Shown piece by piece: positions 40,576-57,629 of a stretch of 64,000 nucleotides of DNA. This DNA is from a virus (lineage: Duplodnaviria; Caudoviricetes), in IMG/VR virus record IMGVR_UViG_3300031910_000003, positions 4,702 through 68,701 of that record; one strand, 5' to 3'. The notes beneath the pieces are model-generated. The model was not told the DNA's origin. It saw only the letters and a list, made by a program, of their open reading frames with translations, and searched no databases. The number at the start of each line of letters is the position of its first letter. Within the stretch, counting starts at the first letter, position 1. The translations under genes were made by a program, and so were the position numbers.

Positions 40576-41466
40576 TTATGCGGCGAACAGATCGCCGATG
40601 ACCGCGCTGGCGCGCAGCGCCAGCTCCATCTGGGCCAGGTGCTTTTGGATCAGCGCCAGCTTGTCGGCATAGGTCGCGGCCTTGCCGGGATCGATCCGTT
40701 TGACCGCGACGATCTCGTTGTCGTCAAAGCCCATCGCCAGGATCTTGCTCACCTGATCGATCTTTTTCTCGAGCCGGCTGGCGGCGCGCAGCTCTTGCTG
40801 GCTCGGCGGCTCCTGGGCGGCGACGACCTGGTCGAAGATCGAGACCTGCGCCTCGGCCTCACGCAGCGCCAGCGACATCGCGCGCAGCGCTTTGTAAGTC
40901 GGGCACTGCCCGGCCTTGATCGCGCCAAACAGGCGGCGTTGGCCGACCGGCGACAACTGCGCCATCTCGTAGGCTTGAGAGTTCGTCAGATTGCCGCTGG
41001 CGAGCAGCTGCAGGTACTCGTCTTCGAGCTTTAGAAGGGATGTCCGCTCGGTAATGCGGAACGGCACCTTGCCGAGCGCCTTGGCGGCGGCTTCGACGTC
41101 ACCGCCGAGCTCGTCGACGAGTCGCTGGTAGGCGTGGGCTTCTTCGAGCGCGGTCATCGGTTCACGCGCGGCATTCTCGATAATCTGCGTCACAAGCACG
41201 TCGGTGCCCGTCAGATCGAGAACACGAGCGAGGATCATCCTGGCCTTGTTGTGCTGATGGGCGCGCCAGCGGCGCTCACCAAAGACGATCCTCCAGCCGT
41301 CGCCGTCGGGCCGGACGCCGATCGGCTGCAATAGGCCGTTCTCGCGGATCGAGCCGGCGAGTTCGGCGATCGAGCCGGGGGTGAATATCTTGCGCGGCTG
41401 GGTCGGGTCGCGATGGACCTTTGCCATTGGCAGCGCGCGCACCTCGAGCGCTGGTGTCTCAGACAT
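40576..41466 (-). CDS. parB: ParB/RepB/Spo0J-family protein
   Basis: DPTQPRKIF..ELA.SI.ENGLLQPI.VRP..IVFGERRWRA; IIEN..RE..TALEEA.AY; preceded by the leader motif. Confidence 0.9.
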   Translation of the reverse strand: MSETPALEVRALPMAKVHRDPTQPRKIFTPGSIAELAGSIRENGLLQPIGVRPDGDGWRIVFGERRWRAHQHNKARMILARVLDLTGTDVLVTQIIENAAREPMTALEEAHAYQRLVDELGGDVEAAAKALGKVPFRITERTSLLKLEDEYLQLLASGNLTNSQAYEMAQLSPVGQRRLFGAIKAGQCPTYKALRAMSLALREAEAQVSIFDQVVAAQEPPSQQELRAASRLEKKIDQVSKILAMGFDDNEIVAVKRIDPGKAATYADKLALIQKHLAQMELALRASAVIGDLFAA

Positions 41467-41497
41467 GGGGGGTGTGGGCTCCTCGGAAGGAAGGCGG

Positions 41498-41665
41498 TTA
41501 GCGGGCCAGAGCCAGGTCGAGCACGTGCCTGATCGGCTCAAACAGGCTGCTGACGAAGTAGGCGAGCGCACTGCCTGAGCCGGCTGCCAGACACAGCACG
41601 AGCACCAGCAGCACGATTGCCTCGAAGCGGTGGCCGCGCAGAAACGACCAAACGAGATCGCTCAC
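41498..41665 (-). CDS. 55-aa membrane protein
   Basis: GTGA-coupled; one TM; below the ORF-track cutoff. Confidence 0.5.
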   Translation of the reverse strand: MSDLVWSFLRGHRFEAIVLLVLVLCLAAGSGSALAYFVSSLFEPIRHVLDLALAR

Positions 41666-41847
41666 AGCGTCACCCGCTTGATGGTCGCGTCGGCCGGGAT
41701 CGACTTGTCGAGTGCGATCGCGCGCAGTGCCACCTGGATCGCCAGCACGCTCGACGATGCCGCGGTCTTGACCACGGTCTTCTTCGGTTTGTCGGCGCCG
41801 GCTGGGAGCCAGGTGAAGGCCACGTTGAAATCGCGCGGGCGGGTCAT
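41662..41847 (-). CDS. Hypothetical protein
   Basis: ATGA-coupled; GGGAG RBS. Confidence 0.55.
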   Translation of the reverse strand: MTRPRDFNVAFTWLPAGADKPKKTVVKTAASSSVLAIQVALRAIALDKSIPADATIKRVTL

Positions 41848-42047
41848 GACTTGCGGCTCCCCTGCCAGTCGCGGTAGCGCGCTGTCTTGAGTTTCTCGCC
41901 GCTGACCGGTTTGGGCGTTGCCGCCGAGCCGATTGCCTTCCTGGTCTGTTGGCCGTCGCCGGTCAGCGGGAAGCGCTGCGGCTTGGCGAGTGCGGCGTCG
42001 TGCGCGGCCACGTGCTGGCGATACCAGCGCGAGGTAATGCGGCTCAT
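41844..42047 (-). CDS. Basic hypothetical protein
   Basis: ATGA-coupled. Confidence 0.5.
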   Translation of the reverse strand: MSRITSRWYRQHVAAHDAALAKPQRFPLTGDGQQTRKAIGSAATPKPVSGEKLKTARYRDWQGSRKS

Positions 42048-42316
42048 TGCTTTGCCCACCGCTTGAAGGTTTTGCGCTCGCCCGAGTAGGCGGGTGTGAG
42101 AAGCATTGCTTCCCACGCGGTTTCGACGTGATAGGTGCGCGCGGGATTGGCGCGCGCGTTGGCCGTTGGGTCGTAGGGTGGGGCGCCGAAGCCGTGCGTT
42201 TTGAGATAGGCCGGGTCCCGCCCGCGAGGGGCGCGGTAGCCAGTGCGCAGCTCGAAAGAGGTTGGCGCGTTGGCGCGCGCACGGGCCAATGTGAGGGGGG
42301 AAGGTGATTGGTGCAA
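42044..42316 (-). CDS. Hypothetical protein (TTG start after leader motif)
   Basis: Leader motif at 42323; promoter at 42352-42380. Confidence 0.5.
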   Translation of the reverse strand: MHQSPSPLTLARARANAPTSFELRTGYRAPRGRDPAYLKTHGFGAPPYDPTANARANPARTYHVETAWEAMLLTPAYSGERKTFKRWAKQ

Positions 42317-42351
42317 TTTAGGCTCCGTCGGAAGGAAGTAACCACACACTT

Positions 42352-42380
42352 ATTGTAGCAGATTACGCTACTTAGTACAT
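42352..42380 (-). promoter_or_regulatory. Leftward module promoter
   Basis: ATGTAC-N17-TACAAT with TG extension; AT-rich. Confidence 0.6.
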
Positions 42381-42429
42381 TGAAAAGCGCTGTGCTCTCG
42401 CAGTGTTACTCTGCTAAGTCAGTGAGATC

Positions 42430-42690
42430 ATGGCGCGCGCAACTGGCTTCTATTGGGTGAGGCTTCTCGGATCTTCCGAGCACCCCGACGGGTGGACGAT
42501 TGGCGAATGGTCCAACAGCGCGCCCGACGGCGCGGGCCACAGGTGGCGTCTGCCCGGCTACTCGTTTCACGAACACGACAACGCATTTCAGGAGATCGAC
42601 GAGCGCCGCGTCGAGCGGGTCAAGCGGCGCACCTGGCGCAACGATCGTGAGCCGCTGACGAGATCGCGCAATTCGCGGCCGACGTCCTGA
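42430..42690 (+). CDS. Hypothetical protein (rightward)
   Basis: GFYWV..WTIGEW..W.LPG. Confidence 0.55.
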   Translation: MARATGFYWVRLLGSSEHPDGWTIGEWSNSAPDGAGHRWRLPGYSFHEHDNAFQEIDERRVERVKRRTWRNDREPLTRSRNSRPTS

Positions 42691-42813
42691 ACCTGACCCT
42701 TTGGTCGAGAGGCTGATCAGGCGCGCGCTGTTCGTCGCGTTTGTGCTCTTTGTGATATTTGGTTGGCTTGGTCTGGTAGCTGTGGTCGAGGCAGCTTGGC
42801 GCTGGTTCTGGGG

Positions 42814-43059
42814 CTAAGGCGAAGGCGGGGCCGGGAAGAAGCGACCGCCGCGACGGCTGACATGCTTGGTATTGACCAGCAGCCGCATCATCAAGTCGAA
42901 CTCGTCGCGGGTCAGATGGTCGGTCAGTGCGGCATAGAGCCGATCAGCGCAGGCACCCTGTGGCGTGTCATTGACCACGCGCACCACCGCTTCGGTGACG
43001 CGCCGGGCGGTGATCATCGCGATCTTGTTGGCCTCGTCGCTCAGGCGGGCAGCGCTCAC
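42814..43059 (-). CDS. Winged-helix-like small protein
   Basis: LYAAL..HLT.DEF..MM.LLV..K.VSR.G; similar layout to 53042-53329. Confidence 0.55.
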   Translation of the reverse strand: MSAARLSDEANKIAMITARRVTEAVVRVVNDTPQGACADRLYAALTDHLTRDEFDLMMRLLVNTKHVSRRGGRFFPAPPSP

Positions 43060-43084
43060 AGCAGCGACTCCTTGGCGGCGCGGC

Positions 43085-43297
43085 TCATTGGTCGGCTTGC
43101 TTGTCGCGCGCGACCAGGCGGGCGATCAGATCGTCCAGCTCCTTGCCGGTCGCGCCGCTCGCTATCGTGATGCCGCGGTTGCCGCGGAAGCCCATCTGCT
43201 CGCCATGATGGTGTGCGCGGCAGAACTCGTTCGAGCATTCGCCGCGGGCATTGCCGTGGACGCAGCGGCTGCTGGATTTGCGGGACTTGCGGGCCAT
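43085..43297 (-). CDS. Hypothetical protein starting MARKSRKS
   Basis: Leader motif at 43305; Cys/His-rich. Confidence 0.6.
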   Translation of the reverse strand: MARKSRKSSSRCVHGNARGECSNEFCRAHHHGEQMGFRGNRGITIASGATGKELDDLIARLVARDKQADQ

Positions 43298-43325
43298 CGG
43301 GTCTCTCCTCGGAAGGGCGGGCGGC

Positions 43326-43748
43326 TTATACCAGCCCGTTGTCGTAGAAGTGGATCTTGCGGCCGCCGACGGTGCGGGGCAGCTCCAGCTCGGCCGCTGC
43401 TTTGCGGGTGACGCGATAGAAGAAACCCTCTTTGAACAGCCAGCCCTTGGTGACCGCGTATTTGACGGCACTCTCGGGCACGTATTCCAAGCAATCTTCC
43501 AACTCGACTACGTGCCGGCCGCGCAGTGCGTTCTTGATATCCTCGTTGGTGTAGCGCTGCAGCTCTTCCGGCTTCCACTGGCGGATCAGGTGGCCGTCGT
43601 CGTCCTCGTCAAACACCGGGGCTTCATTGAACGCCTTGAAGGCGATCGCGCCGGCCCGGCTGGCCGAGCCGCTGCGGACGTCGTAGCTGAAGCGCTTGTG
43701 CGCAACCCGCGGGAGGGCCAGAGCTGGTTTGCGGGACTTGCGGGCCAT
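43326..43748 (-). CDS. Hypothetical protein starting MARKSRKP
   Basis: Leader motif at 43755. Confidence 0.7.
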   Translation of the reverse strand: MARKSRKPALALPRVAHKRFSYDVRSGSASRAGAIAFKAFNEAPVFDEDDDGHLIRQWKPEELQRYTNEDIKNALRGRHVVELEDCLEYVPESAVKYAVTKGWLFKEGFFYRVTRKAAAELELPRTVGGRKIHFYDNGLV

Positions 43749-43790
43749 CGGGTGCTCCATCGGAAGGAATGAATAAGTAATCACAAGATC

Positions 43791-43818
43791 ATCATAGGAT
43801 AGTACCTTACATTGTAAA
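43791..43818 (-). promoter_or_regulatory. Leftward module promoter
   Basis: TTTACA-N16-TATGAT. Confidence 0.7.
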
Positions 43819-43883
43819 GAAAAAAGCGCTCTTTTATGCGTTTTATTTGCACTCATCCCGGTGATTATTTGGGGCCGGTCTGG

Positions 43884-44090
43884 TCAGCCCTCTTGCACAC
43901 AAGCCGCATCGCGCACGGCTGCCGATCGGCACCAGGTCGTGGCCAGGGATCTCGCGCCAGTGCCCGCATTCCAGCCATACCCAGCGGCCGAGCGCGCCGC
44001 GATGGCCGAGGTCGACAATGGCCCGCAACGGCGCACCGCGGCCGGGATGGCGCTGCAGCCTAACGAAGGCATCATGTCGCAGCGGCGCAT
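43884..44090 (-). CDS. Hypothetical protein
   Basis: Small ORF in the gene run. Confidence 0.35.
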   Translation of the reverse strand: MRRCDMMPSLGCSAIPAAVRRCGPLSTSAIAARSAAGYGWNAGTGARSLATTWCRSAAVRDAACVQEG

Positions 44091-44114
44091 CGCGGCCGGT
44101 CATGGCAGCACCAA

Positions 44115-45677
44115 TTACCAGTGGGCGTGTCGCCCGTTGTTCCACAGCTGCAGCACGATCGTGTTGACGTTGGTGCCGACCGAGGCGAACGAGCATGGCG
44201 GCAGATCATCCCACCGCCCGTTCTTCTCCTTGACCAGCGCGCGCAGTGCCGTGGCCTTCTTCGACTCGCGGAACTCGGTGCCGGCCGACATGATCGCGAC
44301 CAGCTGCCCCTCCGGCTTCAAGAACTTCATCGCATGCGTCACGTGGTCGACGTCGCGCTCCAGATCAAAGGGCGGGTTCATCACAACGCAGTCGTAAAGC
44401 CGCTTCGGGTCCGGCTGCATCTGCAGAAAGTCGCCGCACCAGACCTTGCGATAGAGCCGCTCGGCGCGCAACGCGCGCGCCAGCTTCGGCTGGATCTCGA
44501 CGCAGTCGACCCGGTGGTTGAAGGGATAGGACCGGTCCTCGTCGCGGAACTTGTTGCCGACGTGGCCGGCGGTCGCGCAGCGGCGCGCCAGGTTGCCGGT
44601 GCCGGCCGAGGGCTCCAGGATCGAGAGCGGCGGCTTGTCCGGGTCACGCCACAGCGCGACCTTTGAGATCAGGTATTCGGCCGCCGCGTCCGGTGTCGGG
44701 AAGAACCCAAAGCGCCGCGCCACTGTCGTCTTGCGCTTGGCGAACAGGTCTTCCTGGGTGTGCGCGTCGGCGATGACCTCGCCATACCACTCGGCCAGTA
44801 GCTTGTTGACCTTGCACACCAGATCGTTGCGCTTGAACCAGAGATGCGCGTTGCCGTTCTTGTAGCCCTCGATCTTGAAGTATTCGGTTTGCGTCGTGCT
44901 CTGCTTTGGGCCGTAGCCGCCTTCGCGGCGATCCTGCTCGAGCTGCCAAACGCCGGTGCCATACTGCGCGCCGATATGCCCGCCATTGTCGAGGACCGCA
45001 AAGGTGCGCTCGATGTCGAGCAGCGTGTCGCGCATCGGGCCGTAGCTCAGCCCACCGCCAAAATCGCGGAAGGCGTAAGTCAGGATGATCCGCGAGCCGA
45101 TCTTGAACCCGTCGTGGCTGCGGAAGCGGCGATCGAGCTTTGAGAACGCATTGGCGATGCCGCGCCGGAAGATCGTATCGGCGTCCATCGCGAACTGCTG
45201 GATCGTCGCATAGATGTTGTCGACGGTGACCGGCGGCATGCCCTCGCCGAGATCCTCGGGATGGATCACCTGCCCCTTGTCCCAGGCGCCGCGCCGCTCG
45301 ACCCGGTCGGGCAGGTAGCGCATCTGCTGGCGCAGCTTCTCTTTGGCCTCGGTATCCATCAGCCGCTCGAGATCGGTGCGCTGCACGACATAGGACCACA
45401 CACCAAGATCGGTCAGCCGCCGGGCGACGCGTTGGTACAGCTCGCGGTCCGGCAGCTTGACGGCCTTGTGGAAGTCCTGAACTTCGTGGACGCTGCTCTC
45501 GATCAAGGGTTTGGCGTCGCCGGTCGCGCGCTGGGCCATCGCGTGCGCGGCCTTGATCGCGGTGTCGGCCTGCTCGATCGCGGTAAAGGCCTGGTCGTAG
45601 AGCTCGAGCGCCTTGTTGCGGTAGCCGACGATCTCCTCGACCGTCGAGCGCGGAATCAGTTCACGTGCTGCACTCAC
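44115..45677 (-). CDS. DUF4942-like domain + class I SAM N6-adenine methyltransferase
   Basis: FFPTP; ILEPSAGTGNL (motif I); VMNPPF (motif IV); N-terminal F.I..YKNGNAHLWF. Confidence 0.88.
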   Translation of the reverse strand: MSAARELIPRSTVEEIVGYRNKALELYDQAFTAIEQADTAIKAAHAMAQRATGDAKPLIESSVHEVQDFHKAVKLPDRELYQRVARRLTDLGVWSYVVQRTDLERLMDTEAKEKLRQQMRYLPDRVERRGAWDKGQVIHPEDLGEGMPPVTVDNIYATIQQFAMDADTIFRRGIANAFSKLDRRFRSHDGFKIGSRIILTYAFRDFGGGLSYGPMRDTLLDIERTFAVLDNGGHIGAQYGTGVWQLEQDRREGGYGPKQSTTQTEYFKIEGYKNGNAHLWFKRNDLVCKVNKLLAEWYGEVIADAHTQEDLFAKRKTTVARRFGFFPTPDAAAEYLISKVALWRDPDKPPLSILEPSAGTGNLARRCATAGHVGNKFRDEDRSYPFNHRVDCVEIQPKLARALRAERLYRKVWCGDFLQMQPDPKRLYDCVVMNPPFDLERDVDHVTHAMKFLKPEGQLVAIMSAGTEFRESKKATALRALVKEKNGRWDDLPPCSFASVGTNVNTIVLQLWNNGRHAHW

Positions 45678-45847
45678 TCAAATTTCTCCAAGGCTAGACT
45701 GATTGCGGTTGCGGTGGCGAGCGACACGAACGCGAGGGCGCCGAACCGGCCGTTGCCAAAGGACGCGATCACGAAGAGCACGCCGAATGAGCCGAGCACG
45801 GTGCTCAGCACCCACAGGCCCAGCCGCGACAGCAGCGCCGCGTTCAT
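45678..45847 (-). CDS. Small 2-TM membrane protein
   Basis: MNAALLSRLGLWVL...; ATGA-coupled. Confidence 0.5.
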
Positions 45848-46059
45848 GGGTGCCGCATCCTGTCGACTCGCAATGCGAGCTCGACCGCCTTGGCCGGCGG
45901 GCAGCCGCGCGCCAGCAGCGAGCGGATGTGCTGGCGGTTGTCGCCCGAGATTTGCAGTCCGCGCTTGTCGAGGATCGCCTGCGCGGCATCGAGGCGGCTG
46001 ATCGTCACGTCGGCGCAGCGCTGACGTATGCTCGCCGGGAAGAAATAGACGCGGCCCAT
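45844..46059 (-). CDS. Hypothetical protein
   Basis: ORF in the gene run. Confidence 0.5.
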   Translation of the reverse strand: MGRVYFFPASIRQRCADVTISRLDAAQAILDKRGLQISGDNRQHIRSLLARGCPPAKAVELALRVDRMRHP

Positions 46060-46062
46060 CGG

Positions 46063-46251
46063 TCAGTCCCCCACGAATGGGCTTGACGAACGCGCGCTGA
46101 CATAGCCGATGTCGCCATTCTCCAAGCGGACCGTGTAGCCCAGCAGCTTGCCGCTATCGATCTGGTGCCAGACCTGCTCGACCGTGGCTTGACGCGGGCG
46201 GTTGCTGAGATGGTTGCGGACGCTGATCTTGTCGCCGACCTGGTGGCTCAT
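46063..46251 (-). CDS. SH3-like small protein
   Basis: VGDKISV..ATVEQV..YTVRLENG. Confidence 0.5.
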   Translation of the reverse strand: MSHQVGDKISVRNHLSNRPRQATVEQVWHQIDSGKLLGYTVRLENGDIGYVSARSSSPFVGD

Positions 46252-46469
46252 TGGGTCAGCCCCAGCGCGCGCAGGTGCTTGCAGGTGTGGCCCTTGTGAT
46301 AGATCGCACCCGGGCAGCTGCAGCCCCATTGGCCGCTCGCCTTGCGCTGCGCCACCACATAGGTGCGGGCGCTGCTGGCGCTGCTGATCTCAAAGCGGTT
46401 TTGGTAGCTGTCGTTGGCGGGCAGCGCCTTGGCGCCCATCCGGTTCAGGGTTTCGAGGACTTCTTGCAT
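46248..46469 (-). CDS. SWIM zinc-finger protein
   Basis: YVV..W.CSCP..Y..CKHL; leader motif at 46476. Confidence 0.75.
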   Translation of the reverse strand: MQEVLETLNRMGAKALPANDSYQNRFEISSASSARTYVVAQRKASGQWGCSCPGAIYHKGHTCKHLRALGLTQ

Positions 46470-46504
46470 CTCAGGCTCCATCGGAAGGAAAAAGATCAAT
46501 AAAC

Positions 46505-46840
46505 TCAAGCACTTAAGAATATCAGACAGGCTACTAGAGTCACGCAAAAAGCCCCGGTTAACCGTTTATTTACTGGCCGGACCTCGAACGTCACGCCGTC
46601 GATGCGCAGCTCGGTCAATCCCTCGACCGGGATCGAGCGCCAGGCGTGCTTGTCCTGGTCCCACACCACGATCAGGCTGTCGGTGGTCTTGCGGCCGGTG
46701 CCCTTCAGCTCGCCGACCTCGGCAAAGCGGCACCACATCTGGCGGACCTCGCCATTGCTGCGCTTGATGAAGGTGCAGCCAAAAAACCGGCCGGCGGTGG
46801 CGCGGATCAAGCGCGAGGCCTGCTGCGGAGTGATCGCCAT
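46505..46840 (-). CDS. SH3/WYL-like beta-barrel protein
   Basis: F.C.FIKRSNGEVR.M..VWD.DK.AWRSI..L. Confidence 0.55.
   Translation of the reverse strand: MAITPQQASRLIRATAGRFFGCTFIKRSNGEVRQMWCRFAEVGELKGTGRKTTDSLIVVWDQDKHAWRSIPVEGLTELRIDGVTFEVRPVNKRLTGAFCVTLVACLIFLSA
46516..46543 (-). promoter_or_regulatory. Leftward module promoter
   Basis: GTGACT-N16-TATTCT. Confidence 0.5.
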
Positions 46841-46844
46841 TGGC

Positions 46845-47048
46845 TCACTCGCCGAGCAAGGACCAGCGCGGCTCGTCGAGTAGACGCTGCGGCTGGTTTT
46901 TCCAGATCCGCCCATCGTCCCATTCAATGATCATCGTGCCGGCGCTCGAGGGCGTGCCCTGCAGCGCCACGATGCGGCCAGTGAACCCGTCGCCGATGCC
47001 GGTGCGCCAATGCACCCGGTCGTTCACCTGCGGGATGCGGGCGGTCAT
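46845..47048 (-). CDS. SH3-like small protein
   Basis: DRVHW..FTGRIV..IEWDDG. Confidence 0.5.
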   Translation of the reverse strand: MTARIPQVNDRVHWRTGIGDGFTGRIVALQGTPSSAGTMIIEWDDGRIWKNQPQRLLDEPRWSLLGE

Positions 47049-47737
47049 GCGACCGCCCTCAGCTTGGCGCTGGCGCCGGTCAGCACCGCAACGCCGTGCT
47101 CGGTGTCGACCGCCCGCGCGTCCTTGCCCCACGGCAGCCCGTAGTGCTTGGCGCAGACCGGACCGTAACCCACCGCTGTCGAGCGCTCGTCGGTCAGAGC
47201 GGTGTTGCAGAAGCAGCACACCCCGGTCAGGTGGCCGTACTCGGCCGCCGCCTTGGCGGGATCCTCGGCCATCGCCTTCAGCGCCAGCGCCACTGCGGTC
47301 TGTGTCGTCTCGTCGTACTTGCGGGAGGGCTCGAACTGGCCGTCGCGGGTGACCCGGCCGTACCAGTCGCGCGAGCCATAGCCGCCGGCGGCGGAGCAGA
47401 CGTTGATGCTGCCCGGGGCCTTCGACTTCGCGCCGGCGATGTTCAGCCGGATGTCGCGGCCGTTGGCGCGCACGATCACCGCCGGGTGCTTCAGGTGCTT
47501 GGCGGCGCGCTCGAGCAGGTCGACGATGCCTTTGACCGACCCGACGTCGGTGGTCTGGCGCTCTTGGGGCTGGGTGGCGCGGCGGGTCAGCTCGCCGACC
47601 CAATACCACTGCTTGTCGCTGAGGCCGCGGCTCTTGCCGCGCTTGCCTTCGTGCTGCAGGATCAGGCTTTCCGCGAACTCGTAGTCGCGCCCGTGCAGTT
47701 GATCCAATACTGCCCGGAGGGGTTCGATTGACTGCAT
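47045..47737 (-). CDS. DUF6011-like protein
   Basis: CCFCN..LTDERS..VGYGPVCA; leader motif at 47744. Confidence 0.75.
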   Translation of the reverse strand: MQSIEPLRAVLDQLHGRDYEFAESLILQHEGKRGKSRGLSDKQWYWVGELTRRATQPQERQTTDVGSVKGIVDLLERAAKHLKHPAVIVRANGRDIRLNIAGAKSKAPGSINVCSAAGGYGSRDWYGRVTRDGQFEPSRKYDETTQTAVALALKAMAEDPAKAAAEYGHLTGVCCFCNTALTDERSTAVGYGPVCAKHYGLPWGKDARAVDTEHGVAVLTGASAKLRAVA

Positions 47738-47776
47738 GATGTGCTCCTCGGAAGGAAAAAGTTCAACAACATCAAT

Positions 47777-47806
47777 AACCTAGCATAGTTCGCGCAGTAG
47801 TGGCAG
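47777..47806 (-). promoter_or_regulatory. Leftward module promoter
   Basis: CTGCCA-N18-(TGc)TAGGTT; AT-rich leader. Confidence 0.45.
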
Positions 47807-47825
47807 AAAAATGCGCAGTGCGCGC

Positions 47826-47849
47826 AAAAAAAAGCGCGCCGGAGCGCGC
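47826..47849 (-). terminator. Rho-independent terminator
   Basis: gcgcgc-tccg-gcgcgc followed by T8 on the - strand. Confidence 0.75.
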
Positions 47850-47941
47850 GCCTTGCACTGAAAAGGGGGCTTAGCTCAGTGCGTCAGGGCAGTGAGTCAA
47901 TGCGGCGGGCAAACGCCGCGGCCTTGCGCCATGAGTTGCGG

Positions 47942-48400: not shown

Positions 48401-48402
48401 CG

Positions 48403-49188: not shown

Positions 49189-49418
49189 TCGGTGGCCTCT
49201 GGAGCCAGTCCCTCAAGGCGGCGCAGCCGCTCGCCCTGGCGCGAGACTTGGCTGTGGGTCGCGCGGATCTCGGCTAAGAGTCGGGTGTGGCTGTTGTCGA
49301 GCCGCTGCACGATGGCGGTGAGCACGTTCACGTCATCGCGTAAGCTGGCGAGCTCGGCCAGCATCCGATCCTGCTGACGCGCCAGAAACTCCAGCGTGAC
49401 CGGTTCGCGTTCGCTCAT
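49185..49418 (-). CDS. Small coiled-coil protein
   Basis: Heptads; partial leader motif at 49427. Confidence 0.6.
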   Translation of the reverse strand: MSEREPVTLEFLARQQDRMLAELASLRDDVNVLTAIVQRLDNSHTRLLAEIRATHSQVSRQGERLRRLEGLAPEATE

Positions 49419-49795
49419 TCGGCAGACTCCTCGGAAGAGCAGAGCGCGCCCTGCGCTATCCCGGTCCCTTCGTTCCAGGTGCCGCAGCCGCAGAGCCATT
49501 GGCCGGCGTGGTTGATCACGTCGACCTTGGTCGGATTGAACACGTCGCCGCAGTCGCGGCACTGGATGATCTCGCCGGTGCGGTCGTAGTAGACGGTTTC
49601 GTCGGGCTCGCTCAGATCGATCAGCGCGACGCGCTGGCAGTCGCTCGGATGGTCGCTGCCTTGGTAGCGCTCGAAGACGTCGAACACGGTGGCGGTCGTG
49701 TCCGGTTTGGCTTGGTACTCGCGCGCCTTCTCGGCGGCTTGCTGCGGGTTGTCGGCCTCGAGGTCGATTTCCCAGCGGACGAGATAAGCGGTCAT
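49415..49795 (-). CDS. Hypothetical protein with Zn ribbon
   Basis: YLVRWEIDLEA..P.QAA.KA; CRDC..CGC. Confidence 0.65.
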   Translation of the reverse strand: MTAYLVRWEIDLEADNPQQAAEKAREYQAKPDTTATVFDVFERYQGSDHPSDCQRVALIDLSEPDETVYYDRTGEIIQCRDCGDVFNPTKVDVINHAGQWLCGCGTWNEGTGIAQGALCSSEESAE

Positions 49796-50034: not shown

Positions 50035-50558
50035 GACTTGCGCCTCCGTCGCCTGGGCTCGATGATCTCGAGGGGCCAAGGAAATTTCGTCACCTCGATC
50101 ATCAGCAGTAGCTCGTCGGCGAGCGTGCCGGCGGCGTAGTGCTTTTGGACCTCTTCGGCGTCGAGGAGCGGGCCGCTGCCGATCTCGGTGATCGACCATT
50201 CGAGGCTGATCGGATTGCCGGTTTGGCTTGACTCCTTGGGCTGACGCGCCGGATCGAAAAACTCCATGTGCGGGTGCCACTCGCCGCCGGCCTCGCACTC
50301 GGCCTTGTGGATCAGACCGAGCTCGCGGCAGAGCGACTGAACGTTCTCAAACTGGCCCCACGACGCTTCGTTGGCGCACAGGTACAGGTGGCGCTTCTCT
50401 CTGGCGCAGGCCTCGATCTCGGCGAGCGCTTTGTCTTCGTCGAGCGCGCCCCAATCGGGTCCGCAGCGGTCCTCGACGATCGCCTCGACCAGGCTGTCGA
50501 GATCGCGGCGCTTGATCTTGCCGCCGATCGTGATCGCGGCGTTGGCGTATTCGCCCAT
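50031..50558 (-). CDS. Hypothetical protein
   Basis: Coupled ORF. Confidence 0.6.
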   Translation of the reverse strand: MGEYANAAITIGGKIKRRDLDSLVEAIVEDRCGPDWGALDEDKALAEIEACAREKRHLYLCANEASWGQFENVQSLCRELGLIHKAECEAGGEWHPHMEFFDPARQPKESSQTGNPISLEWSITEIGSGPLLDAEEVQKHYAAGTLADELLLMIEVTKFPWPLEIIEPRRRRRKS

Positions 50559-51013
50559 CAGCGTTGCTCCTGTTTCGTGACCAGCGCCAAGGCGATCTGG
50601 TGCAGCTTGGTGCCGGGCGCGTTGCTCGCGGCGCGCGCTCTGACAAAGGCGATGGCCGCCGCGTCGTCGGCGAAGGTGTCGCTGTCGTCGTCCCGCTGGA
50701 TGGCGAGAGGGCCATGCCCGGCGCTGGTCAAGCACATGCACCAGCCTTCCAGCTGGGCGATCAGCATCGCCGGCCCGGTCAATTGCCCGTCGCCGACAAT
50801 CTCGTCGTGTCTCAGCTGATCGGTGAGCAGCAGCAGCCTCTCGGTCGCCTCTTCGAGAAAGGCGCCGGGCCCATCGTCACAGGTCACTTGCCGCAGCCCA
50901 TCGACATCGAGCTCGCGTTGATCCTGCAATTTCAGATCGTAGGTTGCCGCCGCGAGCAGCCGCCAGCAAGCGAGCACGGTGTCGTAATCGAACAGCACGC
51001 GCGGTGTCGTCAT
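50558..51013 (-). CDS. Hypothetical protein
   Basis: Coupled ORF. Confidence 0.6.
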   Translation of the reverse strand: MTTPRVLFDYDTVLACWRLLAAATYDLKLQDQRELDVDGLRQVTCDDGPGAFLEEATERLLLLTDQLRHDEIVGDGQLTGPAMLIAQLEGWCMCLTSAGHGPLAIQRDDDSDTFADDAAAIAFVRARAASNAPGTKLHQIALALVTKQEQR

Positions 51014-51014
51014 G

Positions 51015-51488
51015 TCATCGGTGCTCCTCGTCGAGATCGGCCGAGTGCCGCTTAGGGCAAAAATCTTCATGCGGACCCGTATCGTCGATGGCGCTACCGC
51101 CGCACTCGGGACAGATTGCGAGCGCGTCGCGAGCAGCCTTGTAGGCGATGTCGACGTCATCCCAATCGATGCTGCCGCCATCGCCCTGCGCCTCGCTATT
51201 TGCGTAGGCTTGCACGAGCAGCCGGCAGGCCTTTGCGGCCGGTCCCTCGCCGGCGATCTCTTGCAGTGCGGCGATGATCTCGGGGAGTGCCGACTTGGCG
51301 ATCGACACGCGGCACGCTTCACAGGTCTTGCCGCGGCTGGTGATCGGGCTCAGCAGGATACTGGCTTCGCGATCTTGTTCGCTGGTCGACGAGACGTCGT
51401 AGATCTCGAGGCCATGCGTTTGCACATAGCGATTGCGACCGAGGCTATCGCGGTAACACGGCCTCGCAAACTTGATGATTCTGATCAC
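51015..51488 (-). CDS. Hypothetical protein
   Basis: Leader motif at 51496; CPEC..H..C. Confidence 0.65.
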   Translation of the reverse strand: MIRIIKFARPCYRDSLGRNRYVQTHGLEIYDVSSTSEQDREASILLSPITSRGKTCEACRVSIAKSALPEIIAALQEIAGEGPAAKACRLLVQAYANSEAQGDGGSIDWDDVDIAYKAARDALAICPECGGSAIDDTGPHEDFCPKRHSADLDEEHR

Positions 51489-51527
51489 TGTGTTGCTCCA
51501 TCGGAAGGAAGGGGGGGAAGGGTACCG

Positions 51528-52136
51528 CTATTTCTTGCGGCTTTCGAGCCAGGATCGAGGGACGACCGGGACGTCTGGCTCAACACCCGGTCGGGGAACG
51601 ACGTGAGTCGGTGGTGGCTTGGTGACCGGTTGACGCGGTTGCTTGCCGCCGCGCGGCGGTGACAGTTGGAGCTCGGGCACCTTGATGCCGAGCGTCTCTT
51701 CGAACCATACCGCGACGAGCCGGCGATGGCACCAGTTCTGTGGCACGCTGAACGGTGGCACTTCCCAGCACAGCAGCACCGGCTCTTCGGGTGCGACGAG
51801 CGCGACCAGCTCGGCATAGACCTGCTTGGGGTCGAGCCGCCCCAGCATCTCGCCGTACAACTCGCAATACCGCTCGTAGCTGACGCTGTTGAACCACGGC
51901 CCAGGCGCCAGCTTCGAGTACATGCGGTAGCCTGCCGGGTGATTGCGCGGCGCAAACCGCGCGATGCTGATCCGGCCGGGGCCGCTGTAGGTTCGGAACG
52001 AGCTTGTCTTCACCGCAACGCCTTTCCTTAGTGCCCGTGCAATTGTAGCACGTGACGGCGGCACTGGCACGGTGGTTGCGCGTGTCGCGACGATCGCCGC
52101 GGCAATCAGCTCCAGGTCACTGATTGGCTTGGCCAT
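51528..52136 (-). CDS. DUF488-like protein
   Basis: RISIAR.AP..LAP..Y..LD..VLLCWE..CHRRLVA.W. Confidence 0.75.
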   Translation of the reverse strand: MAKPISDLELIAAAIVATRATTVPVPPSRATIARALRKGVAVKTSSFRTYSGPGRISIARFAPRNHPAGYRMYSKLAPGPWFNSVSYERYCELYGEMLGRLDPKQVYAELVALVAPEEPVLLCWEVPPFSVPQNWCHRRLVAVWFEETLGIKVPELQLSPPRGGKQPRQPVTKPPPTHVVPRPGVEPDVPVVPRSWLESRKK

Positions 52137-52139
52137 CGC

Positions 52140-53045
52140 TCAGGCGATCGGTTCGATTTCTTGGTACCGAGCCGGATCGATGACCATGCCGCAGCCGGGC
52201 TGCTGCGAGCGGTACTCGTCCTTTGGCAACAGGAAGTAGCGCTTGGCGACACCGGGCTCACGCGAGCCGCCGATCGTGGCCATGACGCCGGTCTTGCCCT
52301 CGGGCACCTTCTCGTGCCACTCGCCCCAGGCGCAGATGACCATCAGGTCATTGGCGTGCGCCGCCTCGAACACTTTGATGTCGCGTTTGAAGCTCTCGCC
52401 CGGTTTGAGCTCGACACCGTAGAACTTCTCGTAGGCGTCAGGGTGCCAGTTGCGCATCGTGTCGCGCGCGCTCTGGAGGGTCGTGGCGACGTCGCCCTCG
52501 CCGTGGCAGATAAAGGCAGTCGGGAAGACGGTCGCGACGATCGCCCAATCGCAATCTTCCTCGTACCATCCGCCTTCTCGGCGCATGTAGTCGGGGACCT
52601 GGGCGTTGTGCGCGCGGTCGAGATGGAAGCCGCCGTGGCTCGGGGTGTCGTACCAGGTCACCCCCGGCACGTATTCCTCGGCATTGTCGGCGTGCCCCCA
52701 AGGGGTTCTCTTGCAGACCGCGGTTGTTGGGCCGGTGAACCGCAGCGTCCACGATTTCGGCCCGGCCGGATAATAGATGACCGTCCCGTCGGCGTTGAAC
52801 CGCAGCTCCGCGGCCTTGGGCAGTTCGGCCCACATCTCGACGATCTCGCCATCCGGATGGCGCGGGCCGTCGAAGTAGTAGCCGTTCTTCTGGATCCCCG
52901 GGCGCCCGCTCTTGCGCGTCAGCTTGGGCCGACGCCAGCTGCCGACCAGCCGAGGCTGCCAATGGGCGAGCACGGCGATCACGACACCGGGTGTCTCGAT
53001 CGCGCGCTGCAGGGCGGCTCGTGAGTCGATATTGATCTGGCTCAC
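52140..53045 (-). CDS. DUF7007-like protein
   Basis: TPWG.AD..TPSHGGF.L..WYEEDCDWA. Confidence 0.7.
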   Translation of the reverse strand: MSQINIDSRAALQRAIETPGVVIAVLAHWQPRLVGSWRRPKLTRKSGRPGIQKNGYYFDGPRHPDGEIVEMWAELPKAAELRFNADGTVIYYPAGPKSWTLRFTGPTTAVCKRTPWGHADNAEEYVPGVTWYDTPSHGGFHLDRAHNAQVPDYMRREGGWYEEDCDWAIVATVFPTAFICHGEGDVATTLQSARDTMRNWHPDAYEKFYGVELKPGESFKRDIKVFEAAHANDLMVICAWGEWHEKVPEGKTGVMATIGGSREPGVAKRYFLLPKDEYRSQQPGCGMVIDPARYQEIEPIA

Positions 53046-53329
53046 TGTGCGGCCTCCGGCAGGGTCGCGGCGATCTGCTCGAAAGCCGACACTGGTGCGG
53101 TCTTGAGGAAATAGAGCTCGCCGCTCTTGCGCAGCTTGCCGGCTCGCACGAGCCCGCGCATGAACTGCTCGTAGGTTTCGAGGCTACAGCCCTGCCCCAT
53201 CAGCGCGGCGTAGATCACGCCGCCCGGGGCACCGGTCGGGCCGGCGGCTTTGACCGCCTCGACGATCGCGTCGCAGATCGCGCGGATGGCGCGCGCCTGC
53301 TCGGGTGTCATTTGTGGCATTGGTAACAT
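53042..53329 (-). CDS. Winged-helix-like small protein
   Basis: GAPGGVIYAALM..LE.YE..M..LV..G; leader motif at 53332; start may be 53320. Confidence 0.6.
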   Translation of the reverse strand: MLPMPQMTPEQARAIRAICDAIVEAVKAAGPTGAPGGVIYAALMGQGCSLETYEQFMRGLVRAGKLRKSGELYFLKTAPVSAFEQIAATLPEAAQ

Positions 53330-53377
53330 TGCTCCATCGGAAGGATGCGCCGGAGACCGCCGGCGCGCGGTGTTGGG

Positions 53378-53602
53378 TCAGTTGTATCGGACGGTGAGTC
53401 CTTGCTCGTGGCATCGTTCAGCAAACGCCGTCGCTGCGGCAGAGGGCAGATAAACCGCGCCGAGCCTGACGTTGTACTTGGCGCGCAAATTCGCCATCGC
53501 CGAGCGACCCGCATCACTCAGCGAGTCGACCGACGCGTAACACTCGCCGCGGCGTAACGCTTCAGGCGAATTGCCGAGTGCTTTGACGTGAATATCGGCC
53601 AT
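53378..53602 (-). CDS. Hypothetical protein
   Basis: Leader motif at 53611. Confidence 0.65.
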   Translation of the reverse strand: MADIHVKALGNSPEALRRGECYASVDSLSDAGRSAMANLRAKYNVRLGAVYLPSAAATAFAERCHEQGLTVRYN

Positions 53603-53639
53603 TGCATTTGCTCCATCGGAAGGAAAGTAACCAACACTA

Positions 53640-53668
53640 ATTGTAGCACAATAACCGGCTGAGTACAG
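53640..53668 (-). promoter_or_regulatory. Leftward module promoter
   Basis: CTGTAC-N17-(TGc)TACAAT; similar to 42352-42380. Confidence 0.65.
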
Positions 53669-53689
53669 TGTGTTTACTTGGCGGCCTCC

Positions 53690-54307
53690 TCAATCCATGT
53701 TGCACATAACAAGGCACTGCTCATACGGGATGCCGCTCTCCTCGTGCAGCACCGCGGCCGCGTCGCCGGGCCGGTTGGTCGCCGTCGTCGGGTGGTGCTT
53801 GATCAGGTGCGTCAGCCCGCCGATCAGATAGCGGGCGTCCTGGTCGTCGTAGCCCTGGGCGCGGGCGGCTTTGTAGTCGCGCTGCCATTTGCACTGCGCC
53901 AGGAACTCGCCGCGGATCCGCGATACCTCACGCGGTGAGAAGTACACGCCCGGCTTGCCGGCGATCACCGCGTCGAACCATGCGGCGTCGTCTTCGGGCC
54001 ACTTCCAGGCGCAATCGAGGACGTGCTTGAGTGCCCCGAGCTCGGCCTCGCCCCTGGTGGCATAGCCGCCGCTCGGATAGACGTGGCCGGTCTGCGGCTC
54101 GGCGATGCCCTCGATGATCGTGTGCCCCCAGCCCCAGCGCTGGAAGGCGACCAGCGCCACCACGGCGCCGATGCGGATGATCGTCGGCGAGTCCTCGGTC
54201 TGCTTGACGATGTGCTCGAGCTGGCGGCCGGCGTCCTGCTTGGCGGCGGTGACGGTCGGGCCCTCGCCCTCGATGCCGTAATAGGTCAGCTTGATTATCT
54301 TGCTCAC
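53690..54307 (-). CDS. Hypothetical protein
   Basis: GTG start after the leader motif at 54314. Confidence 0.65.
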   Translation of the reverse strand: MSKIIKLTYYGIEGEGPTVTAAKQDAGRQLEHIVKQTEDSPTIIRIGAVVALVAFQRWGWGHTIIEGIAEPQTGHVYPSGGYATRGEAELGALKHVLDCAWKWPEDDAAWFDAVIAGKPGVYFSPREVSRIRGEFLAQCKWQRDYKAARAQGYDDQDARYLIGGLTHLIKHHPTTATNRPGDAAAVLHEESGIPYEQCLVMCNMD

Positions 54308-54374
54308 CTGTGACTCCTCGGAAGGAAGGGTGCGCCGGAAACCGCCGGCGCTCGGTTCATTTCTCGGCTCTGTG

Positions 54375-54953
54375 CTACCAGCACGAGTACGAGGCGACGC
54401 CCTCGGGATTGACCGAATAGCGCTGACAGACCGTCCGGCTCTGTCTGGGCTGCGCCGGGCGCAGCGCGTACTCATATTCGGCGACGGTGCCCGCTGCGTC
54501 GAGCACGGCCCCGAGCACGGTCCCAAGCCCCTGCAAGAAGCCGCCGACTGCCTGATTGGTGCCCGCCTGCGCGATCCGCTGGTCGAGGGTCTGCAAGTCG
54601 GCAAAGGTCCGGTCTTGCCAATAGCCGGCGCAGGTCTCCATTGCCGGGCTCGGCGGCAGTTGCGGGTTCGGCGCGTCGGCGTGGCAATAGGCGGCGTGCT
54701 GCTGGGCGGCGGCATTGATCCGCCGCGTGAGTTCGACCTGGTCGGCCGGACTCAGCTTGCGGCCAACCTCGATCGCGGCGGCGAGATTGCGCACGGCGTT
54801 CGCCTTGAGCCGCGGCGAGGCGCAGACGATGCGCTGCGGCGGGGTCAGGTCAGGGTGGGCGCAGAATGCGTCAGCTAGGGCTTGCACGTCTTGCGCCTGG
54901 GCGCTGCCCGATAGGCCGATGACCGCACAGGTTGCCAAAAGTGCTTTTCTCAC
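54375..54953 (-). CDS. Secreted protein, LprI-like Cys pattern
   Basis: Signal peptide MRKALLATCAVIGLSGSAQA; C..P.LT..QRIVC..P.L..C..C. Confidence 0.5.
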   Translation of the reverse strand: MRKALLATCAVIGLSGSAQAQDVQALADAFCAHPDLTPPQRIVCASPRLKANAVRNLAAAIEVGRKLSPADQVELTRRINAAAQQHAAYCHADAPNPQLPPSPAMETCAGYWQDRTFADLQTLDQRIAQAGTNQAVGGFLQGLGTVLGAVLDAAGTVAEYEYALRPAQPRQSRTVCQRYSVNPEGVASYSCW

Positions 54954-55001
54954 GTCACTTACTCCTTGGGGTATTGCGCCGGAACCGCCGGCGCGCGGAT
55001 C

Positions 55002-55703
55002 TCAGTCGTTTCTGGCGTGCGGCCATTCGCACCTGCCAGGGTCGCCGCGCACGCAGGCGCGCTCGCCGTCCTTGCAGCGGGCGCAGTTGTGATACTCGAA
55101 TTTCGGGTGCATGCCCGGAAGCAACCGGCGCGGATCTCTCGGGTCGACCGTCTTGTTGTATTCGACGATGGCTCTGACCTCGTCGGGCATCCAGACGCGC
55201 TCGGTGATCGGCTCGAGCTTGGCGAGCTCGCCGACGCGGTCGTGATCGCGGTGACCGGCGCCGGCCGCCAGCGCCTCGCCCTGCTTTCGGGCCCACTCGG
55301 CAGCGGCCTCGCTCTCGGGGATCACCTTGTAGACGCGGCACGGGATCTTGAAGTTGACGCCATTGTGCGCGCGGGCGCTGTCGTGGTGGAAAAACCAGAA
55401 CCACCCGTCCTGCGTTTCCTCGGTGGGGCGCAGCCGGTCGATCGGGATTCCTTGATCGAGACCACCGGAATGCTCGACGCCGCCATTGCGGCAGAGATGG
55501 AACGAGCCGCCGGCACCGATATCGCGCGGCCCCTTGCTTGGCCCTGACGTCGGCTGGATGCGGTCGCCCCAATGGTGCGCAAAGCGGCGTAGCTCACCGT
55601 CCGTCATCCAAACAAAATCGCCGACACGCGGACCGGTGATCCGCTCGCGGCGCAACTGGCGCTCGGCGAGGATCTCGCCGTCGCGTTCGTCAAACTCTGG
55701 CAT
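55002..55703 (-). CDS. Hypothetical phage protein
   Basis: GPRVGDFV..RF.HHW..GSF.L..SGGLD..WFFHHD..AH.GV. Confidence 0.65.
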   Translation of the reverse strand: MPEFDERDGEILAERQLRRERITGPRVGDFVWMTDGELRRFAHHWGDRIQPTSGPSKGPRDIGAGGSFHLCRNGGVEHSGGLDQGIPIDRLRPTEETQDGWFWFFHHDSARAHNGVNFKIPCRVYKVIPESEAAAEWARKQGEALAAGAGHRDHDRVGELAKLEPITERVWMPDEVRAIVEYNKTVDPRDPRRLLPGMHPKFEYHNCARCKDGERACVRGDPGRCEWPHARND

Positions 55704-55717
55704 TGTCGTCAATCTCC

Positions 55718-55924
55718 TCAGTGGGCATTGTAAAAGGTCTCGTCGGCGACCGCGGCGTCGAAGCTGTTTTGCATCGTCTCGCCGCAGCCGCACTCCGAGC
55801 CGAAGGTGTCCCGGGTGCGCGGGTAGAAAAACGCGCGCTGGCCTCGTCTGATCTGGCCGGTCTTGCAGCCGCTGCACGGGCTGTCGAATTTGGCGGTGAT
55901 CCAGTAGGGGTCGCCACGTGCCAT
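55718..55924 (-). CDS. Small Cys-containing protein
   Basis: WITAKF.S.C.GC..I.RG. Confidence 0.6.
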   Translation of the reverse strand: MARGDPYWITAKFDSPCSGCKTGQIRRGQRAFFYPRTRDTFGSECGCGETMQNSFDAAVADETFYNAH

Positions 55925-56466
55925 CAGGAGGTTCTCCTTCTGCGGCCAAGCAGCGCCGTCTCGTGCGGGTTAGGGTCGCGGAGACAAGCCGGGCAGAACT
56001 CCTCGTCCCCGCTGGTAGAGAACGTTTGTTCGCACCGCATGCAATCCCGCTCGACGGTTTCGGGTTCCTCGTTCAGCACCCAGCCGGTGCCGACCTTGTA
56101 GTAAGCGCCGCGCGCTCGCGTCGGCGGCACCAGCAGCGGATCGTCCTCGGTGAGCTCGCCGTATTTGTACGGGTTGTCGCGGAGCATTTTGACGAACGCC
56201 TCGTGCTCGGCGATCAGCCAGGCGTTGAACGCGTCGACCACCGGCTGCGCGATCGGGAACCGCGAGTCGCTCCGGTGCAAGAGACCGATCGAGGCCACGA
56301 CGTCGCGCTCCCAATCGGCGAGGGGCGAGCTGTGGTTGTAGATCGACTTCTCGTAATCGCTGGCCTCGCGGCGCAGCGTCGCGGTGTAGACCGGGCCGTC
56401 GCCGGCGATCTCATAGTCGACGGTGCCCATGTACGAGCAGGTCCAACGGAAGGTGTAGCCGGGCAT
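55924..56466 (-). CDS. Hypothetical protein with C-terminal Zn ribbon
   Basis: GGAGG RBS; CMRC..CPAC. Confidence 0.6.
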   Translation of the reverse strand: MPGYTFRWTCSYMGTVDYEIAGDGPVYTATLRREASDYEKSIYNHSSPLADWERDVVASIGLLHRSDSRFPIAQPVVDAFNAWLIAEHEAFVKMLRDNPYKYGELTEDDPLLVPPTRARGAYYKVGTGWVLNEEPETVERDCMRCEQTFSTSGDEEFCPACLRDPNPHETALLGRRRRTS

Positions 56467-56684
56467 CAAACAACCTCCTCGTCGCTGTCGATCACCGGCA
56501 GTTCCGGCTGCCCGGTCACGCTGTGCACGTTGATCTGAAACTCGCTGCCGTCGTCGCTCGTGATCACGATCTGCCTTGTGTAGTGGGTGTCCCGCGCGTC
56601 TCTGCGGCCCCCGTAGCGGAACCCGCGGCTGATCTTGATCTCCTTCGCGCGGAAGAAGGTCAGTTCGGTGTGTGCTGCGCTCAT
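56466..56684 (-). CDS. Hypothetical protein
   Basis: GGAG RBS. Confidence 0.55.
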   Translation of the reverse strand: MSAAHTELTFFRAKEIKISRGFRYGGRRDARDTHYTRQIVITSDDGSEFQINVHSVTGQPELPVIDSDEEVV

Positions 56685-56863
56685 GCTGCTTGTCTCCTGC
56701 GTTGCGCATACTTGCGGGGTTTGGGGCGCTTGATCGGTTGCACCAAGCGGCCATTGCGGTAGCTGGCGTCGCGCTCGACCTCGGCCAGCGTGCGGTGGTT
56801 GCGGAACGCCCAGCTGTCACCAGCTGGGACGTCGCGGGCGGCGAGCGGGTGGCGGTTCATCAC
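56681..56863 (-). CDS. Small protein, paralog of 37399-37590
   Basis: PLAARDVPAGDSWAFRNHRTLAEV. Confidence 0.65.
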   Translation of the reverse strand: MMNRHPLAARDVPAGDSWAFRNHRTLAEVERDASYRNGRLVQPIKRPKPRKYAQRRRQAA

Positions 56864-57123
56864 CGCCGCCCTGGTGCTTGGTCGATCTTCTCGGCGATCG
56901 AGTCGATCTCTGTCTTGACGTCGAAAAGGCGCCCGATGCGCGCAATGTGCTCGTCGTGCGCTTTGAGGAACGCATCCGGCCCTTGCGGGTAATAGTCCCG
57001 CCCGTGCGGCGAGGCATCGCCCAACTTGTCGATCGCGACCAGCAGCGCGTCGCTCGCGTTGAGCAACTGCTTGATCAGTTCCTCGCGGCTGGTGCCGTTT
57101 AGGTGGATGGTCGGGATCATCAT
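56860..57123 (-). CDS. Hypothetical protein
   Basis: PTIHLNGTS..L..PHGRDYYPQ. Confidence 0.65.
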   Translation of the reverse strand: MMIPTIHLNGTSREELIKQLLNASDALLVAIDKLGDASPHGRDYYPQGPDAFLKAHDEHIARIGRLFDVKTEIDSIAEKIDQAPGRR

Positions 57124-57419
57124 GCGCCCGGCCCCCGGCGTTGCAGCCGTGTCGCCAGCCGGGCCCGCCACTGATTTGTGGCCTCGTCGATCTCGCGCGC
57201 GATGCGCTCGCATTTCGCGCAGGTGCACGGCTGCGGGTCGGTCCACTGCTCGGCGCAGTAGGAGCGATAGAGCGCCTTGGCGACGCCCTCTTGCACGTCT
57301 GGGCTCTCGTTCGGGAAGTGGAAACGCGCGAGCGAGTGCGCCTCCTCCTGGGTGACCGCGTACACCGGTCCGATGTCGGACGCGATTTGGTCGGCCTTTA
57401 CGTCATACTCGTCGTACAT
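57120..57419 (-). CDS. First gene of the leftward module array
   Basis: Leader motif at 57427. Confidence 0.65.
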   Translation of the reverse strand: MYDEYDVKADQIASDIGPVYAVTQEEAHSLARFHFPNESPDVQEGVAKALYRSYCAEQWTDPQPCTCAKCERIAREIDEATNQWRARLATRLQRRGPGA

Positions 57420-57465
57420 ACGATTGCTCCTCGGAAGGAATTAGTGAGCAATAACAACAACTTAG

Positions 57466-57495
57466 AGTGTAGCACAAAGTACCATAAATGCACAG
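57466..57495 (-). promoter_or_regulatory. Leftward promoter
   Basis: CTGTGC-N18-(TGc)TACACT. Confidence 0.6.
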
Positions 57496-57516: not shown

Positions 57517-57525
57517 TGCTAAGCT
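57517..57525 (+). promoter_or_regulatory. Extended -10 rightward promoter
   Basis: TGcTAAGCT; predicted +1 near 57532; no clear -35. Confidence 0.5.
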
Positions 57526-57531
57526 GGTGCT

Positions 57532-57621: not shown

Positions 57622-57629
57622 GTGAAAAT

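Follow-up and report, generated by a model that had tools for sequence, protein, structure and literature searches.

A start-associated leader shared by twelve leftward genes of an uncultivated soil phage, and a divergent hairpin loop that may address it

Start-associated sequences (SAS) and their extended form (ESAS) were described in the Cluster K mycobacteriophages by Pope et al. 2011 (PMC3203893), and in a 2025 survey the role of SAS is still unverified (PMC12699233). Here we analyze an analogous leader in a window of 64,000 nucleotides, bases 4702-68701 of the 68,701-bp IMG/VR virus record IMGVR_UViG_3300031910_000003, an uncultivated temperate soil phage whose host is probably an alphaproteobacterium. 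The leader, TTCCTTCCGA(N)GGAGC, which includes the Shine-Dalgarno (SD) sequence, precedes genes of the leftward arm at 41-57.5 kb, whose products are mostly ORFans except for one DUF6011 and one ParB-like protein, and it is found at none of the packaging and structural genes. A sequence-only reading of this DNA had likened the leader to the Cluster K SAS, and as far as anatomy goes the likeness holds: the SAS too are short asymmetric repeats, 11-19 copies per genome in one orientation, that include an SD core and lie a few nt ahead of the start codons of unrelated genes in the non-structural half. The sequences, in contrast, are unrelated and the phage is not a mycobacteriophage. The 13-bp SAS consensus GGGATAGGAGCCC has only the GGAG core in common with the leader, which does not match it at two or fewer mismatches, and both the host phylum and the phage lineage differ. 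The ESAS are imperfect 17-bp inverted repeats upstream of about half of the SAS, whereas here only two copies stand behind a GC hairpin; moreover, the conserved part lies solely 5' of the SD and has a structured complementary partner with comparative support. As sequence, host and lineage differ, we regard the motif as an analogue and not a member of the Cluster K SAS.

The trans-acting antisense immunity RNAs c4 of phages P1/P7 and CI of phage P4, reportedly treated by Citron and Schuster in 1992, a paper that PMC8546580 cites, provide a second parallel. These small phage RNAs derive from an operon leader and are matured by RNase P, and their exposed loops pair with short sites that include a ribosome binding site, turning lytic functions off. 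Similarly, the partner proposed here is a candidate RNA with a promoter, a terminator and a conserved structure, whose exposed loop is predicted to form extended complementarity with its targets' ribosome binding sites, and which is followed by a tRNA-like structure with CCA where c4 and CI rely on RNase P. Unlike c4 and CI, which act at one or two sites in their own operon, it would have 12 address-bearing targets on divergent transcripts; it matches no Rfam family, and its expression and processing are predicted only. We propose that this antisense loop targets the leader in all its copies, through which translation of the leftward genes would be repressed coordinately, a reading that we favour while giving it slightly less than even confidence.

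Regular-expression scans of the window and of the entire genome confirmed the occurrences given in the sequence-only reading. The string CCTTCCGA[N]GGAG is present at 41479, 42323, 43305, 43755, 46476, 47744, 51496, 53332, 53611, 54314 and 57427 (n=11) and the partial copy TTCCGAGGAG at 49427; 12 of 12 belong to the minus strand and have GGAG 6-12 nt upstream of ATG, GTG or TTG, and no further start-associated copy was found in the 68.7-kb genome. The motif is real and highly non-random, as TTCCTTCC gives 10 matches against 1.3 expected, a number equalled in 0 of 100 shuffles. The strand asymmetry holds genome-wide, with TCCTTCCGA occurring 11 times in reverse and 0 times in forward orientation, and the exact 8-mer CCTTCCGA is met elsewhere only at 2907 (plus strand) and 13488 (minus strand), both within genes. 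The conserved block spans ~17 nt, (T)TTCCTTCCGA-(0-1 nt)-GGAGC, of which the conserved part is a 10-nt G-free block, UUCCUUCCGA, placed 0-1 nt 5' of the SD GGAG. Directly after 10 of the 12 copies a frame-specific signal in third-position GC content (GC3) begins, which is weak after 53611 and 42323. An extra minus-strand copy at 57537-57545 has GAAG in place of GGAG and no gene downstream. Scans of IMG/VR for the exact motif returned no close relative and no other contig with more than one copy, single copies being attributable to chance. One-mismatch variants of CCTTCCGA are rarer in the whole window than in shuffles (34 vs 63 +/- 8), which may reflect off-target avoidance or merely an effect of codon structure.

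Upstream of six copies (57427, 53611, 47744, 46476, 43755 and 42323), at a distance of 14-25 nt, are -10 boxes typical of Alphaproteobacteria (GCTACAAT, GCTACACT, GCTAGGTT or TATGAT). These promoters are often preceded by terminators, and the arm is organized as terminator-promoter-leader cassettes. The remaining copies, about half, are intercistronic with no promoter-like sequence upstream, two of them preceded by a GC hairpin. Since the junction with the SD is fixed (0-1 nt) and the distance to the promoter is variable, the leader belongs to the translation start and acts in the mRNA rather than in the promoter. In a crude gene model, the ~30 leftward genes that have no motif are mostly coupled to the preceding gene (ATGA, GTGA or gaps of 1-4 nt), and a few have short gaps with a plain AAGGAG or GAGGAG. 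Most leftward cistrons without translational coupling to their predecessor have the leader as ribosome-loading site. Of the functions considered in the sequence-only reading, that of a translational control element is favoured by the fixed position, the variable promoter distance and the comparative data given below, its effect on expression being a prediction. The same reading had suggested a hairpin in cis, in which CUUC of the leader pairs with GGAG. Such a hairpin appears in most minimum-energy folds, but the energy for opening the SD is 4.4 kcal/mol in leader genes vs 3.7 kcal/mol in other genes, which is not significant (p=0.09), and in the relatives the pairing is mostly 2 bp; the model folds thus speak weakly for it.

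Relatives were located via the anchor gene PF22559/PF22555 (window 57728-59080), which adjoins the leader arm. They are prophages in Bradyrhizobium, Rhodopila, Acetobacteraceae, Azospirillum and other Alphaproteobacteria, with ~36-49% identity in this neighbouring protein and a GC content of 49-68%. At least 10 of them carry, on one strand of the leftward arm, a leader of the form yCC-CTACCAC-(0-1 nt)-SD-(6-9 nt)-start. CTACCAC counts on the minus and plus strands are 9/0 in L224, 7/0 in L205, 7/1 in L323 (Bradyrhizobium), 6/0 in each of L324 (Rhodopila), L202 and L204, 5/0 in L201, 4/0 in both L314 and L331, and 3/0 in L190. Other lineages have CCTACCA or TTAACCA in the leader's place, CA-rich leaders occur as well, and the version found in L205, TTCCTACCAC, equals TTCCTTCCGA of this phage at 7 of 10 positions; all versions are free of G and directly adjoin the SD. 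A literature search for CTACCAC returned primers only.

The counterpart of the leader lies at the head of the divergent rightward transcript. Eleven sequence-distinct relatives have a conserved sigma70-type promoter, TTKACA-17-CATNNT, ~70-125 nt ahead of the PF22559/PF22555 gene and, 6 nt past this promoter, a 5-bp hairpin whose loop, U-GUGGUAG, is invariant (11/11) and complementary to the relatives' leader core CUACCAC. The stem is paired in 96% of cells and shows compensatory changes in 4 of its 5 pairs, with nine double-change cells; the covariation score, the paired cells and the double-change cells were equalled in 0 of 500 shuffles, and the count of pairs changed on both sides in 8 of 500. 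Two G.U pairs of the stem are possible only on the plus strand, and the large hairpins downstream likewise rely on plus-strand G.U pairs. In our phage an extended -10, TGcTAAGCT (57517-57525, plus strand), aligns with the conserved -10 of the relatives and is followed by the 5' hairpin TGCTTC-TCGGAAG-GAAGCA (57531-57549, plus strand), whose stem is that of L242 and whose loop, UCGGAAG, is the reverse complement of the phage's own leader core (CUUCCGA; CTTCCGA in DNA). The two leader versions differ at three bases, and at each of these the loop differs to match. An automated search for a third leader/loop version gave noise only, and the hairpins of L181 and L183 mismatch their own leaders.

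A second plus-strand hairpin separates the 5' hairpin from a strong intrinsic terminator (57587-57622, plus strand), which has a 14-bp stem followed by a T run and no other obvious job, and 57532-57622 is accordingly a predicted terminated plus-strand RNA of ~91 nt. A 96-nt plus-strand RNA folds at -53.4 kcal/mol (z = -3.6) with three hairpins, and the opposite strand folds worse. Searching Rfam at two thresholds gave nothing at gathering scores, the best E-values being 0.7-1.4 for generic small RNA shapes. Directly 3' of the terminator, at 57630-57695 (plus strand), lies a cloverleaf-like fold with a 5-bp acceptor stem, a T-arm-like CCGGG-TGCGAGT-CCCGG and a 3' TCCA, in which an 8-bp stem with a tetraloop replaces the anticodon arm. 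ARAGORN called no tRNA, this fold included; the fold may serve as a signal for processing.

The loop and the U-rich 5' arm of its hairpin are predicted to pair jointly with the leader over 15-16 nt that include the SD, leaders of the GAGGAG type doing so via one G.U pair. When the opening of both partners is counted, the accessibility-corrected duplex energies of the 12 leaders are -7.9 to -16.2 kcal/mol, and those of 276 other genomic sites with an SD and a start are no better than -3.7 kcal/mol; L324, L314, L224 and L190 give the same picture. By plain duplex energies, the leaders did not stand out from the GC-rich background. We also considered, and by hand rejected, that the CU block might pair with the 3' end of 16S rRNA, there being no complementarity beyond GAGGAG.

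As the SD junction is fixed, the stem covaries and the loop matches the leader in two versions, base pairing is the most economical reading of these data. The 5' block of the leader is most plausibly a shared address for one trans-acting RNA that controls all these genes. Its partner would be the 5' end of the divergent rightward transcript, here the predicted ~91-nt RNA at about 57532-57622, whose first hairpin would expose UCGGAAG; the loop and the U-rich arm would pair with leader and SD and so block ribosome binding. The leftward genes would then be repressed whenever rightward transcription is on, or in lysogens, repression being the direction that we infer. The address would be read either by the hairpin of the rightward operon, which starts with the methyltransferase-like and terminase genes, or by a short terminated RNA, and in this phage the terminator may turn the 5' end into a discrete small RNA, in the manner of P4 CI and P1 c4.

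Several points weigh against the antisense reading. The phage is known from soil metagenomes alone and its RNA is a prediction, and the -35 of its rightward promoter is poor. Leaders of the GAUGGAG type introduce a 1-nt bulge into the pairing. As the leader versions number only two, the joint change of loop and leader amounts to one covariation event, and since a single DNA word yields the loop on one strand and the leader on the other, recognition of double-stranded DNA by some factor would account just as well for the way in which the two change together. Finally, L205, L323, L201/L202/L204, L226 and L228 have a CTACCAC leader and no separate hairpin, and since several relatives keep the leader in this way, it must have a function that is independent of the hairpin.

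That function could be the only one, the leader being a translation element in cis, namely an unstructured initiation region in a 65% GC genome, a standby site or a binding site for S1, spread by duplication of promoter-leader cassettes, with the rightward hairpin an unrelated 5' stabilizer. The initiation regions (-20..+10) of leader genes do open more easily than those of the phage's other GGAG-type starts (10.3 vs 15.3 kcal/mol, p=0.006), the blocks are G-free in all relatives (CUACCAC, UUAACCA or CA-rich), the arm is made of such cassettes and, as said, relatives that lack the hairpin retain the leader. Composition alone, however, leaves unexplained an invariant 7-10-mer across diverged phages, as well as the joint change of hairpin loop and leader, and we consider a purely cis role unlikely, if far from negligible. 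Alternatively, a repressor could bind the motif as double-stranded DNA past the leftward promoters, between cistrons and at +6..+13 of the rightward promoter, leaving both arms silent in the lysogen. Every site sits where a bound protein would block initiation or elongation, the identity of loop and leader on one DNA strand is exactly what a reader of DNA predicts, and candidate DNA-binding proteins are encoded (a tyrosine integrase, a BTAD protein and two OmpR-type winged-helix proteins; GcrA gave a weak, sub-threshold match). The arrangement resembles the Cluster A stoperators, numerous asymmetric sites of 13-bp scale that occupy short intergenic gaps in one orientation relative to transcription, with a further site at a promoter (PMC3203893). 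Stoperators, however, bear no fixed relation to SD or start, and their reader, a known repressor, binds them as DNA, whereas here the SD junction is fixed and the promoter-proximal copy lies in a covarying hairpin, neither of which an operator accounts for. Nor does it account for the tolerated 1-nt insertion beside the core, and the copy at the rightward promoter has a polarity opposite to its own transcription, so that the uniform polarity to local transcription seen in stoperators is absent. We therefore rate an operator as rather improbable.

The leader could also be the RNA site of a phage or host protein that, like T4 RegA or RegB, acts on these mRNAs as one group by repression, activation or cleavage. 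The positional logic is the same as in the antisense model, the persistence of the sequence in distant relatives suggests that its reader is conserved too, and a GGAG-type SD is reminiscent of RegB targets. However, no RNA-binding domain was detected in the 40 window proteins scanned (10 by PHROGs only), and a protein that recognizes CUACCAC would not recognize GUGGUAG, the loop on the plus strand, leaving the conserved hairpin unexplained; this makes such a protein a doubtful candidate. Least of all do we credit a motif with no regulation beyond the SD, be it the homology patch for module shuffling proposed in the sequence-only reading or a relic of duplication; this we hold to be very improbable. 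The copies do mark cassette borders, and the genes behind copies 9 and 10 are alike over their first ~25 nt. Against this, other IMG/VR contigs hold at most one exact copy each, and in many phages CTACCAC precedes unrelated genes and has its mirror image in the loop of a structured RNA.

The individual copies, all on the minus strand, are numbered from the right end of the arm. Copy 1 (57427-57440, TTCCTTCCGAGGAG) lies behind a -10, GCTACACT, at 57466-57473 and precedes the ATG at 57419 of a 99-aa ORFan. The same sequence, TTCCTTCCGAGGAG, makes up the intercistronic copy 2 (54314-54327; GTG 54307), which has a GC hairpin upstream at 54332-54351; copy 7 (47744-47757), which precedes the DUF6011 protein (ATG 47737) and has terminators (47812-47854) and a -10, GCTAGGTT (47777-47784), on its upstream side; and copy 12 (41479-41492), in front of the ParB-like protein (ATG 41466). 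Four copies read TTCCTTCCGATGGAG: copy 3 (53611-53625), with a -10, GCTACAAT, at 53640-53647 and a 74-aa frame of weak coding signal (ATG 53602); the intercistronic copy 5 (51496-51510; GTG 51488); copy 8 (46476-46490; ATG 46469), with an AT-rich promoter-like stretch upstream; and copy 9 (43755-43769; ATG 43748), behind a promoter TTTACA-16-TATGAT at 43791-43818. Copy 4 (53332-53346, ATCCTTCCGATGGAG) follows a GC hairpin at 53347-53366 and precedes an ATG at 53320 (or 53329). Copy 10 (43305-43316, CCTTCCGAGGAG; ATG 43297) and copy 11 (42323-42337, TTCCTTCCGACGGAG; TTG 42316), the latter with a weakly coding frame and a -10, GCTACAAT, at 42352-42359, complete the full copies, and the partial one (49427-49436, TTCCGAGGAG) lies within the 3' end of the upstream gene, its ATG at 49418 being ATGA-coupled. 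The neighbouring genes at 43297 and 43748 have their first ~25 nt (ATGGCCCGCAAGTCCCGCAAA) in common, which suggests a local duplication. The GC hairpin, GCGCCGGCGG-T(T/C)(T)-CCGGCGC, is present in three intercistronic minus-strand copies, those upstream of copies 2 and 4 and a third at 54976-54994; as the gene behind the third (GTG 54953) has a plain AAGGAG ribosome binding site and no motif, hairpin and motif are separable.

A nucleotide search of phage records found no match to the genome, whose estimated completeness is ~79%; RHph_TM3_3_3 and RHph_N28_2, two Rhizobium phages, have terminases 55% identical to its TerL, and the phage sequence was near-identical across 24 soil metagenome DNA runs. 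The closest relatives, P0002-P0004 and P0016, show 60-71% identity, and a single-protein locus search gave no match. At 57728-60150 (plus strand) the PF22559/PF22555 (methyltransferase-like/GNAT) gene and then a ParB-like gene head the terminase operon; the former is present in well over 100 related contigs and prophages, and the ParB-terminase neighbourhood was seen in this phage. In L270, which has 71% identity in the PF22559 protein, the 285 nt upstream of the gene contain a 76-bp tandem duplication (L270:1-160) and show no similarity to the leader region of this phage. The related phage L188 (L188:1900-9950) has a different leader element, with hairpins of conserved loop GGCUGGAACC whose stems vary among copies yet stay complementary and with a palindrome, TAGCCATTGGCTA, adjoining each promoter. 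At the leftward promoters of L201, L202 and L204, which are lower in GC, CTACCACAACC begins 7 nt past the -10 and, with a conserved element of the -35 region, makes up an inverted repeat (TTGTGG...CCACAA) resembling an operator pair.

SAS have been unexplained since 2011, and a specific, testable partner is now proposed for an element of this kind. By analogy, the antisense logic may also explain why four Cluster K phages have one reverse-oriented SAS copy that lies away from a gene start (PMC3203893), which would give one anti-SAS RNA per genome. It is conceivable, though we hold this generalization only tentatively, that SAS serve as address tags by which a phage-encoded antisense RNA finds its targets: one loop would silence a dozen early or accessory genes that are otherwise unrelated, and tag and loop would co-evolve. 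Should the pairing fail, SAS-like elements are still extended from phages of Actinobacteria to phages of Proteobacteria. The phage family offers two natural leader/loop pairs that should be mutually orthogonal, together with a conserved promoter and a 19-nt hairpin. If the pairing is true, a temperate phage silences a whole arm of unrelated genes post-transcriptionally by means of one short RNA, and a portable, programmable multi-gene translational switch for Alphaproteobacteria would be gained.

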